A DNA stretch of 64,000 nt. Origin: a candidate division WOR-3 bacterium. Lineage in GTDB: Bacteria; Hydrothermota; Hydrothermia; JBDRYB01. The notes beneath the pieces were generated by a model. The model was not told where the DNA came from. It was given only the letters and a program-made list of their open reading frames with translations, and searched no databases. Shown one piece after another: positions 1 through 64,000 of this stretch. A program made the position numbers and the translations under genes. Position 1 is the first letter of the stretch. Each line of letters begins with the position of its first letter. The stretch lies in NCBI GenBank assembly GCA_039803205.1, contig JBDRYB010000002.1, forward strand, positions 96,243 through 160,242, in the 5' to 3' direction.

Positions 1-299
1 TCATACATGGCCCCAACAGCTAAGGTTGTGAGCAGAGTGAGAACAAAAAGAGCGATGTTTATCCAAACCCGGGTGCCTTTCGTTTTAACCCTCGGGAGGA
101 GAATAGCCCTTACGGTCCCGTCCTCCTTCTGGTTTATGTGGAGGTAGAAACCCCGGTGGTTTGCTTCCACGACGAACATCTCAGCGTTTTCCTTCTGAGG
201 CGGCCTCATATAACCCTCAAAGATGAGCATACCATCCGGAAGGGCCTCCTTGTAAATGATCTCCATGAACCTACCAACGAGGGTTTCTATCTCTTCCAT
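1..299 (-). CDS. Probable site-2 protease (M50) family membrane protein, N-terminal part (runs off window)
   Basis: Own translation from ATG 299: MEEIETLVGRF...RVWINIALFVLTLLTTLAVGAMY. The 'NIALFVLTLLTT' segment is typical of S2P/M50 N-termini; the HExxH motif would lie outside the window. Overlaps the stop of the upstream gene. Confidence 0.55.
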   Translation of the reverse strand, partial: MEEIETLVGRFMEIIYKEALPDGMLIFEGYMRPPQKENAEMFVVEANHRGFYLHINQKEDGTVRAILLPRVKTKGTRVWINIALFVLTLLTTLAVGAMY

Positions 300-30443: not shown

Positions 30444-30588
30444 CGTGCTCGCTTTCAATGCCCGGGGGCGGAATCGTTCCTGACTCGCCTCGCGTGAATT
30501 GGCTCGGCGAGCAGCTAAAGGTGGACGCTCGTGGAACACGAACGATCCGAGGTATCGTGCTCGCTTTCAATGCCCGGGGGCGGAATCG
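30444..30588. repeat. 33-bp perfect direct repeat overlapping the tRNA-Phe 3' end
   Basis: CGTGCTCGCTTTCAATGCCCGGGGGCGGAATCG at 30444-30476 and 30556-30588. Confidence 0.95.
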
Positions 30589-30643
30589 AACCACCGACAC
30601 GGGGATTTTCAGTCCCCTGCTCTACCAACTGAGCTACCCGGGC
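30571..30643 (-). tRNA. tRNA-Phe (GAA), CCA not encoded
   Basis: Reverse complement GCCCGGGTAGCTCAGTTGGTAGAGCAGGGGACTGAAAATCCCCGTGTCGGTGGTTCGATTCCGCCCCCGGGCA forms a full cloverleaf. Confidence 0.97.
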
Positions 30644-63106: not shown

Positions 63107-63317
63107 CAGAGGTTATTATTATAATCTCTGGCCTCGCTTGATTTCAAGCTCGCGCGCTCGCGGACAAGGAAGTATTTGGATCACCCAGGCCTTCGGTGAG
63201 GCATCTGCGCGGCGTAAAGGACATGAAAACCCTGTTCAGCTGAGCTACCCATCGTTTCTCAGACCAGGGGGATATGCCGGGGATCAAAAATAAGCACAGA
63301 GGGGAAAGGATCATGAT

Positions 63318-63414
63318 AGCATTCCCTCACTATTGCATAACGCCTGCTATGTCCCAAGACTTCCATCAGTGGTGAAAGATATTCAAGGAGTCCTTCCATA
63401 GGAGACAAATTATG
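63318..63414 (-). mobile_element. Second copy of the IS/transposase 5' end seen at 21071
   Basis: Reverse complement CATAATTTGTCTCCTATGGAAGGACTC.TTGAATATCTTTCACCACTGATGGAAGTCTTGGGA... is near-identical to 21071-21167. Confidence 0.75.
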
Positions 63415-63498
63415 GCCTAGATGGCCAACCCAGGGCCAGCACCTCAGGAGGGCCTATTTATGAGGATTAGGAAAAGTTTTGGGTAAGGGTCAGTTCCT

Positions 63499-63729
63499 CT
63501 ATAGACGCTTGCCGCATTTGACACAAATACCTTTATGTTGATCGCACACCATGGCTGGATGTGATGCCGGCCATTTTTCGCATACCGCGCATGAATCCCG
63601 CTTACCGCTAAAGGAACAGCTATCACACAATAGTCCAGGATGGTCAGCTGGCCAACGACCACATATCGCGCACTGTTCCCTTTTGCTCCCAAAACCATGT
63701 TCATCACACAAGAGTGCTCTCTCAGTCAT
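63499..63729 (-). CDS. Triple-repeat Cys/His zinc-finger protein, PHF5/Rds3-like
   Basis: GGGGAGG RBS; six ligand pairs CDEH, CAIC, CDSC, CAVC, CDQH, CVKC in three internal repeats. Confidence 0.75.
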   Translation of the reverse strand: MTERALLCDEHGFGSKREQCAICGRWPADHPGLLCDSCSFSGKRDSCAVCEKWPASHPAMVCDQHKGICVKCGKRL

Positions 63730-63861
63730 CCAAGACCTCCCCTTTCTCTCCGCCCGAAAGTATAAAGGCCCGTGTCAAGCGCGCGCAAACTATGTGATCC
63801 TTCGTGATCCCTCACCCCCCTAGCCCCTGATTGACCCCGTGATTTATCATTTTGGGCATGA

Positions 63862-64000
63862 AGGAGAGGGCCGGAAGAAAGCCCATACTCTGATAGGCTC
63901 TGGACCTTGGCTTCTCTCCTCTGGTATTTGGGGCTCTCAGTTGAGAACACGGCTAAGGTGATGAGGGCGATAACGGGAAGAAAAGTCTCTCCCTCAGGGG
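63862..64000 (+). mobile_element. Possible transposase fragment (IS256-like), runs off window
   Basis: Own translation ...LWYLGLSVENTAKVMRAITGRKVSPSG resembles the G.S......L.G..VS HTH region; no clean start. Confidence 0.35.

Follow-up and report, generated by a model that had tools for sequence, protein, structure and literature searches.

A short bacterial protein with three zinc-knuckle units and a predicted PHF5A/Rds3-like fold

PHF5A/Rds3 is a subunit of SF3b in the U2 snRNP. In the first-pass annotation of the window, that is, the whole stretch of 64,000 nucleotides from a candidate division WOR-3 bacterium analyzed here, a small cysteine-rich reading frame close to one end was proposed to encode a prokaryotic relative of this spliceosomal protein. 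The locus raises three questions: whether the reading frame is a gene at all, whether its likeness to PHF5A/Rds3 reflects common descent or merely recurring cysteine motifs, and what such a protein might do in a bacterium.

The gene and its genomic setting

The reading frame, taken from the ORF list and its translation, comprises 76 codons beginning with ATG and lies on the minus strand (Table 1). The open frame upstream contains no further in-frame start codon. Twelve ligands, ten Cys and two His (C8, H11, C20, C23, C35, C38, C47, C50, C62, H65, C69, and C72), form six C-x2-C/H knuckles and hence three units, in which the spacers measure 8, 8, and 3 residues. The units are joined by two similar 11-residue linkers (GRWPADHPGLL and EKWPASHPAMV) of the W-P-A-x-x-P-A type. 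Seven residues precede the first ligand and four follow the last, the sixth knuckle being a complete C-x2-C. Each spacer carries a Lys/Arg pair, and two tryptophans, W26 and W53, are located three residues past knuckles 2 and 4. The protein has no signal peptide and a pI of about 8. It is most likely a cytoplasmic protein of three tandem zinc-knuckle units. The 76-residue frame, the ribosome-binding site, the twelve ligands, the three repeats, and the similar 11-residue linkers are all as the first-pass annotation had described them, and the sequence is identical to the translation quoted there.

Table 1. Features at the locus, in window coordinates (the coding sequence includes the stop codon)
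Feature	Position	Strand	Basis or remark
CDS, triple-zinc protein, 76 aa	63499..63729	-	translation, single copy, purifying selection, PF03660 27.4 bits
RBS, purine-rich AAAGGGGAGG, GGAGG ending 6 nt 5' of ATG	63736..63745	-	sequence read
Unit 1, residues 8-23: C-x2-H, 8-residue spacer, C-x2-C	63661..63708	-	translation; ligands invariant in 7 homologues
Unit 2, residues 35-50: C-x2-C, 8-residue spacer, C-x2-C	63580..63627	-	translation; ligands invariant
Unit 3, residues 62-72: C-x2-H, 3-residue spacer, C-x2-C	63514..63546	-	shortened, typical of subfamily
Short dispersed repeat, abuts stop codon	63315..63493	.	about 16 other places in the genome; depth above that of the ORF
Dispersed repeat, like 3' part of a degenerate IS-like element	63180..63330	.	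about 8 other places
Dispersed repeat, like 5' part of the same IS-like element; contig ends inside it	63803..64000	.	about 8 other places, 82-99% identity
Terminator-like hairpin, about 72 nt 3' of the stop, inside repeat	63413..63427	-	pattern scan alone; weak

Conservation of the protein was analyzed at several levels. In an alignment of 7 close homologues all 12 ligand positions are invariant, and full-length homologues are present in other genomes at 63-67% identity. Among 61 genomes, five, including the source genome itself, match the protein at E < 1e-3. Two of the others possess it at full length with 66-67% identity (G032 and G011), one has a copy broken by stops (G027), and one a partial copy (G048); all four belong to one genus in another family of the same class. 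The two genomes of the window's own genus that were searched with the protein gave no match. A pattern scan of 185,579 species genomes returned 5 loci, situated in MAGs labelled uncultured bacterium, Bacteroidetes, Smithella, and Proteobacteria. When the window gene was compared with three orthologues, pN was 0.22-0.27 against a pS of 0.80-0.89; the gene and its relatives are under purifying selection. Moreover, in a DNA alignment of five loci, namely the window and four orthologous ones, similarity starts and stops at the borders of the ORF. Each of the four orthologous loci has a GGAGG-like site of its own, and upstream conservation is otherwise absent. Because the ligands are invariant, homologues exist, pN is lower than pS, and similarity is confined to the ORF, the ligand pattern is more than chance, and the 76-residue ORF is confirmed as a real gene.

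It could still be supposed that the ORF encodes a peptide precursor, made on the ribosome and then modified at its cysteines, or has no function. Its small size, its abundance of cysteine, its repetitiveness, and the absence of the exact sequence from a 15-billion-protein collection would be in keeping with this. Such an explanation is very improbable given that no radical-SAM or other maturase adjoins the gene at any locus, and that purifying selection, invariant ligands, confident globular models, and a strong ribosome-binding site all speak for a working protein. In the one metatranscriptome from the same hot-spring study, no contig covers the stretch.

The gene is present in a single copy in a genome of 2.32 Mb, 50 contigs, and 95.9% completeness, and the contig, and with it the window, ends 271 bases upstream of it. 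Proteins that cluster, at 90% identity or more, with one encoded at another place in the window bear the name candidate division WOR-3. A DNA search of this genome with 894 bases around the ORF yielded 41 further matches, all on the flanks, and none of these touches the ORF or the 73 bases upstream. In the other copies, the repeat at 63180-63330 follows that at 63803-64000 after about 300 nt and overlaps an ORF resembling a transposase tail. Short degenerate ORFs that resemble the HTH head and C-terminal tail of a transposase are carried by the other copies of the outer repeats, the transposase label being a reading of these sequences rather than a database match. Two hot-spring DNA runs show a contig depth that is several-fold greater over the flanks than over the unique piece of 369 nt at 63464-63832. 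The dispersed repeats restricted to the flanks, the transposase-like ORFs in their other copies, and the higher flank depth bear out the earlier description of the gene as lying between IS-like remnants.

The terminator-pattern scan of the region returned 2 sites against 0.9 expected from shuffles, which is chance level, and the promoter scan gave no promoter-like site for the gene. Elsewhere in the window, an FMN riboswitch considered for the 390-nt gap before ribD was discarded, as Rfam at gathering level reports one tRNA only for the whole window.

The GC3 of the gene is 0.41, compared with 0.59-0.68 in six other window genes, and the orthologues are located in loci of 32-41% GC. The neighbours differ at every locus and include a tyrosine integrase, an N6 methylase with a specificity domain, a DUF4143 protein, and gatB; across the loci compared there is no conserved partner gene. 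A 165-residue acidic protein encoded 3' of the gene in G032 and G027 found no match in the window's genome when used as query, and no family of PADLOC-DB matches the window protein at E ≤ 0.01. On account of the low GC3, the flanking repeats, the patchy distribution with absence from genomes of the same genus, and the differing neighbours, the gene is probably a horizontally acquired accessory gene of a hot-spring bacterium. For this genome alone it would be a minor one.

The wider family of three-unit proteins

A word-indexed homologue search with the single protein as query gave no candidate, and the relatives were obtained by exhaustive phmmer comparison with 1.84 billion representatives, which produced 75 matches at E ≤ 1e-3, 22 of them at E ≤ 1e-10. 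Most relatives have 75-150 residues and three tandem units with the consensus L-C-x2-C-G-F-G-x-K-K-D-N-C-x2-C-G-K-W, each followed by a linker of 11-13 residues, and in the wider family each of the three spacers is about 8 residues long. Signal peptides of the Sec or Tat type occur in many of these relatives. The exported bacterial proteins of the form C-x2-C-GFG-x-KK-x2-C-x2-C-GKW, which are matched at E values down to 6e-18, resemble the window protein in repeat family, number of units, and predicted fold. They differ from it in that they mostly possess Sec/Tat signals and equal 8-residue spacers, whereas the window protein has no signal peptide, linkers of the W-P-A-x-x-P-A type, and a shortened third unit. 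Some phmmer matches proved spurious: P0012 is an ASPM-like IQ protein, and P0036, P0055, and P0071 contain repeats of the 'RWPEAEP' type.

Longer members are protist proteins that bear the module at the C terminus, as in Willaertia magna, a Carpediemonas-like organism, and other EukProt entries. Their modules belong to the same repeat family as the window protein but are parts of long multidomain proteins. In several of them the chain ends are of the PHF5A type, a single Cys with a spacer preceding the units and another single Cys closing the module, which places their form between that of the bacterial proteins and that of PHF5A.

A profile built from 43 members retrieved 219 clusters at E ≤ 1e-5. 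In NCBI the family clusters bear the name 'hypothetical protein' and come from Myxococcales, Bacteroidia, Planctomycetia/Thermoguttaceae, Pseudomonadota, and Pyramidobacter; several have the JGI label 'ribosomal protein L37E', apparently in error. A crude count by pattern finds three full units in 126 of the 183 stored matches, and relatives of two units also exist, for example P0010, P0066, and P0063. Occurrence in genomes is low. A six-frame search with PF03660 (the Pfam PHF5 family) found 5 of 272 genomes of the window's phylum, which is an undercount because the search missed the window's own gene, and the family profile found 1 of 301 genomes in the phylum of the 'Smithella' genome, the seed itself. 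The family is sparse, being rare in genomes and spread over bacteria and protists. In the ESM Atlas, where recognition was below the tool's reliability mark, all ten best family-bearing matches were PF03660, and the top cluster (score 0.92, 111 members) was 50% Bacteria. The commonest phylum in that cluster is Promethearchaeota, with only 2 members of known phylum, which serves as a lead only.

Likeness to PHF5A/Rds3 in sequence and predicted fold

PHF5A contains five CXXC motifs, and its zinc sites are formed by motifs 1 and 4, by motifs 2 and 5, and by motif 3 together with two lone Cys near the termini, which adjoin a stem of terminal strands, as described in the accessible portion of Teng (2017). 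Kaur and Subramanian (2015) describe Rds3p as composed of three treble clefs, with circular permutation in two, and Dabrowski-Tumanski et al. (2016) describe its deep trefoil knot, the core of which encloses 8 of the 12 ligand Cys. The same portion of Teng (2017) names only Rds3 as having the PHF5A fold in the PDB, in keeping with the first-pass statement that the fold is regarded as eukaryote-specific. Full-text literature searches found no paper on prokaryotic PHF5 relatives.

The HMMER comparison with the Pfam PHF5 profile that had been suggested as a check placed the window protein above the gathering cut-off of PF03660, with 27.4 bits and E 4.1e-6 against 26.7 bits; the margin is 0.7 bits, and Cys-rich repeats inflate profile scores such as this one. 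PF03660 is also the best Pfam family in 26 of the 29 relatives scanned, 17 of which reach the cut-off, with a maximum of 49.2 bits, and by our own count the PF03660 label is precomputed in 106 of the 120 clusters listed from the 219. Among PDB sequences, PHF5A was matched by the single protein at E 0.037, and Rds3 by a 7-member profile at E 4e-4; with the 43-member profile, Rds3 (E 1e-6) and PHF5A (E 1.6e-6) ranked first. Positions 27-105 of the latter profile fall onto Rds3 17-88 in one collinear alignment covering all three units, and the match to PHF5A likewise consists of one alignment that runs collinearly through the three. Beyond the ligands, the family shares with PHF5A/Rds3 the G/S-F-G turn past the first knuckle (C-x2-C-SFG in Rds3, GFG/SFG-type in the family), an aromatic residue three positions past the second knuckle, and the length of the linker. 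NCBIfam gave nothing meaningful for the window protein, with a best E of 2.7. The single sequence found its best PDB match in CRIPT (PF10235; PDB 7DVQ chain 0), with E 0.031 and an alignment confined to the final 33 residues (K-G-I-C-x2-C-G-K). This match was rejected: C62 is paired with the second Cys of the CRIPT knuckle instead of the first, which puts the ligands out of register; the Pfam score is 12.1 bits (E 0.33) against a cut-off of 25.5; the match is lost with both family profiles (E ≤ 1); and there is no structural match.

Profile scores of this kind leave room for convergence, in which the protein would consist of three independent small fingers, each Zn being held by two adjacent knuckles, while the PHF5 match would stem from C-x2-C periodicity and the predicted fold from recall by AlphaFold2. 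The marginal Pfam score would suit this explanation, as would the 43-member profile itself, which also matches unrelated C2H2 finger arrays (PRDM9 and Aart) at E 1.3e-5, about ten times more weakly than Rds3; periodic Cys/His patterns alone can therefore approach a score at the level of Rds3. Alignments of family members to the HMM fall in several registers, a point that may likewise be counted for convergence, although the registers follow from the internal threefold repeat and register alone proves nothing. In addition, relatives show weak double-zinc-ribbon matches to PF12773 (DZR), at 16.9-24.0 bits and below the cut-off of 27.3; that family is not among the 10 Pfam matches of the window protein. 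Against convergence stand the position of PF03660 as best family across nearly all relatives scanned and the likeness beyond the cysteines, namely the GFG/SFG turn, the aromatic past the knuckle, and the 11-residue spacers.

The predicted structure was then compared with the PDB. AlphaFold2, supplied with an alignment of 23 sequences, gave a model of the window protein with pLDDT 82.6 and pTM 0.63, confident models being 2 of 5; the remaining 3 are poor, which would again suit independent fingers. With Foldseek, ranks 1-17 against the PDB are all PHF5A/Rds3, with TMq (the query-normalised TM-score) of 0.54-0.66 and rmsd of 1.9-3.0 Å over 63-75 columns, and at rank 18 TMq falls to 0.21. VIA-align reported Z ≥ 2 for 16 of 208 chains, and all 15 entries listed are PHF5A/Rds3, with Z of 5.7-7.4, where by VIA's own caution a Z under 8 can reflect a common arrangement. 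The superposition covers 67-68 residues at 2.2-2.4 Å and is collinear, placing residues 1..73 of the model onto PHF5A 16..89. A search independent of Foldseek, over 48,161 representative PDB chains, returned Z ≥ 2 only for 5gm6_J (7.3, Rds3) and 5zya_D (5.7, PHF5A), and that no other fold reaches Z 2 argues against convergence. So does P0034, a distant and fully regular member. With a 43-sequence alignment all 5 of its models were confident (pLDDT 81-85, pTM 0.69) and showed the same fold, matching PHF5A/Rds3 exclusively with TMq of 0.55-0.64 and Z of up to 7.5, and 72 residues were aligned onto PHF5A 14..88. It should be borne in mind that the training data of AlphaFold2 included structures of PHF5A/Rds3, which the network may be reproducing, so that the models are not independent proof.

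The number of units bears on convergence in both directions. Relatives of two units count against the PHF5 fold, because a single two-unit chain cannot close a three-site triangle; nevertheless, no other number of units is nearly as frequent as three, the number that a closed fold with three sites would need. On balance, convergence is considered unlikely, and homology of the window protein to PHF5A quite likely. The PHF5A/Rds3-like identity put forward in the first-pass annotation is supported by sequence profiles, comprising the Pfam match, the family-wide PF03660 matches, and the PDB-sequence profiles, and by the predicted fold in two AlphaFold2 models, which match PHF5A/Rds3 and do not show the independent fingers that the annotation had named as the contrary outcome. 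It is likely, in our estimate, that a real gene here encodes a PHF5-like three-zinc module.

The homologous reading implies a particular architecture. The models predict a triangular triquetra fold shared with PHF5A/Rds3 alone, and the collinear superposition on PHF5A 16-89 would imply an interleaved zinc pairing. Three Zn ions would tie the six knuckles in the pairs 1+4, 2+5, and 3+6, interleaved as in PHF5A/Rds3, and this pairing would pull the chain into a compact, rigid triangle. A knot, in PHF5-like proteins a deep left-handed trefoil, is likely in the modelled protein and would be shallow at its ends, because the knotted core of Rds3, with its 8 of 12 ligand Cys, falls inside the aligned range. 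The window protein would thus be a more regular, stem-less relative of PHF5A in which all six knuckles are complete.

Regarding the order of the units, the first-pass annotation had proposed a circular permutation of the type 2-3-1. This is unnecessary, because the structural alignment (1..73 onto 16..89) and the family-profile alignment are both collinear. The short spacer of unit 3, which recalls the short first unit of PHF5A and is the chief argument for such a permutation, is confined to a small subfamily, in which the alignment shows a deletion relative to the 8-residue spacers of wider relatives. Since all three spacers measure about 8 residues in the wider family, the likeness of spacers is most simply read as a parallel deletion. 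A smaller permutation does exist at the level of the aligned sequences. In the collinear alignment, knuckles 1-5 of the window protein fall on the five motifs of PHF5A and knuckle 6 on its C-terminal lone Cys, while in the 7-member profile the N-terminal lone Cys of Rds3 and the next 11 residues align with the second Cys of a knuckle and an inter-unit linker; PHF5A can therefore be understood as this repeat array opened half a knuckle earlier. It splits the sixth knuckle between its termini, where the window protein keeps it whole. The PHF5A-type cut, which leaves two and a half units preceded by a single Cys with linker and followed by a single Cys, is found in 12 of the 183 stored matches, a crude count since 45 of the 183 fit neither pattern, and its bearers include two signal-peptide proteins and several of the protist C-terminal modules.

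Compared directly, PHF5A/Rds3 (PF03660; PDB 5SYB, 2K0A, and 5GM6 chain J) and the window protein share twelve ligands in three units and are collinear over about 70 residues, with 11-residue inter-unit spacers in both. The stem of N- and C-terminal strands in PHF5A is missing from the window protein, the model of which spans PHF5A 16-89 only. The third zinc site of PHF5A draws on a lone Cys at each terminus, whereas the window protein has a complete sixth C-x2-C. Furthermore, two of the ligands in the window protein are His, unlike in PHF5A, the spacers are 8-8-3 as against 3-8-9, and sequence identity is only 21-24%. The gene, unlike that of PHF5A, is an IS-flanked accessory gene of a bacterium without a spliceosome.

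Possible function and origin

Bacteria, to our knowledge, have no spliceosome, and the function of the protein is read here as unconnected with splicing. A tentative proposal is that the zinc knot acts as a rigid scaffold for the binding of nucleic acid or of another protein, in which case its edges, with the Lys/Arg pairs, W26, and W53, would form the binding surface. The Trp of the profile that lies three residues past the second knuckle, W26 in the window protein, aligns with a Tyr of PHF5A (Y36, native numbering), which is situated at the branch-point adenosine pocket according to the accessible portion of Teng (2017). Many relatives carry Sec or Tat signal peptides, and a nucleic-acid role is therefore ill-fitting for the family as a whole.

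The main functional rival to a binding scaffold is metal buffering. On this explanation the same fold would serve, much like a metallothionein, to buffer or detoxify metal, its gene being carried by mobile DNA in a hot spring rich in metals, and exported relatives would do likewise in the periplasm. The presence of 12 thiolate or imidazole ligands in 76 residues, the mobile, IS-flanked setting with low GC3, and the hot-spring source are consistent with it, as are the Tat signals of many relatives; the Tat pathway exports proteins that are already folded and loaded with their cofactor. The fixed C4/C3H tetrahedral sites of a rigid fold, by contrast, look structural rather than exchangeable. Metal-resistance genes adjoin none of the six loci examined, and no metallothionein family appears among the 10 Pfam matches at E ≤ 10. 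Buffering is for these reasons regarded as improbable, and the scaffold remains our working proposal.

As to origin, the available part of the most thorough study on the beginnings of the spliceosome (Vosseberg 2023, Table S4) gives neither paralogues nor prokaryotic homologues for PHF5A. The link between PHF5 and bacteria is already latent in public data, because database pipelines tag many of these proteins PF03660. It is possible, and suggested here with reserve, that PHF5A, listed among the proto-eukaryotic inventions of the spliceosome, descends from a prokaryotic family of three-unit zinc-knuckle proteins. The fold could be regarded as a ring of six knuckles closed by three zincs, the chain of which can be cut at different points. 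Bacterial members would mostly be cut after knuckle 6, and some bacterial members, many protist ones, and PHF5A would be cut through it.

If this descent is true, the window protein and its kin would represent the prokaryotic root that a core protein of the U2 snRNP has so far lacked, and the family would constitute a set of circular permutants of one knotted protein provided by nature. Every spliceosome has PHF5A at its branch-point pocket, and its knotted fold with three zincs is otherwise unexampled in the PDB, as far as the accessible portion of Teng (2017) goes. A family in bacteria and protists that is predicted to share this fold, in a plainer form with threefold regularity, would offer a testable ancestry for this 'invention'. 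Its members, short and easy to express, would also lend themselves to work on the folding of a knot tied by zinc, especially those that differ only in where the chain is cut.

Repeats around the zinc-protein gene and the gap before ribD

The zinc-protein gene is flanked by dispersed repeats, and a DNA search of its own genome with the surrounding 894 bases returned 41 further matches, all of them to the flanks; the repeats are spread across many contigs. The contig end falls within one repeat copy, and the IS-like and MITE-like repeats therefore probably cause the breaks in the assembly. The interval of approximately 390 nt separating the gene from ribD (63107-63498) consists largely of repeat copies; no Rfam match to an FMN riboswitch was obtained in this interval, and a sigma-70-like site lies upstream of ribD. 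Across the whole window, a single tRNA gene provided the sole Rfam match at gathering level.

Features of the window (window coordinates)
Feature	Position	Strand	Remarks
Family of degenerate IS-like elements and shorter MITE-like repeat	63180-63493, 63803-64000		Dispersed repeats (also loci L012, L013)
Sigma-70-like site	63147-63118		Upstream of ribD; 11/12 matches
tRNA gene	30571-30643	(-)	Rfam, gathering level

Orthologous loci in other genomes

Stop codons together with a change of frame disrupt the orthologue in genome G027 (locus L004, about 1507-1853). The genes beside it remain intact and share synteny with G032, a genome of the same genus as G027; they encode an acidic protein of 164 aa, a TetR regulator and an epimerase. 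Identical copies of the zinc protein also occur at L018 (4001-5077) and L019 (1228-2304), in two metagenome-assembled genomes whose labels place them in separate phyla, one as Bacteroidetes and the other as Smithella. The adjoining 259-aa protein is likewise identical, and an integrase lies upstream in L019. The identical copies represent either a mobile element common to different phyla or a binning error.

Naming and variants within the three-unit family

Several three-unit members (P0085, P0088, P0096, P0111 and P0145) carry the JGI label "ribosomal protein L37E", probably a mislabelling arising from the Cys pattern; eL37 gave weak matches to the family profile (E 0.04-0.16). Two-unit versions also occur (P0010, P0063, P0066, P0070 and P0043), some with signal peptides. 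A three-zinc triangle cannot be closed by one two-unit chain, and these versions may adopt a different pairing or be assembled from several chains. One subfamily with Tat signals (P0106, P0117, P0118, P0123-P0129, P0134 and others) shows a systematic ligand shift: unit 3 opens with a knuckle in which two Cys are adjacent, G-N-C-C-G-F-G, in place of C-x2-C-G-F-G.
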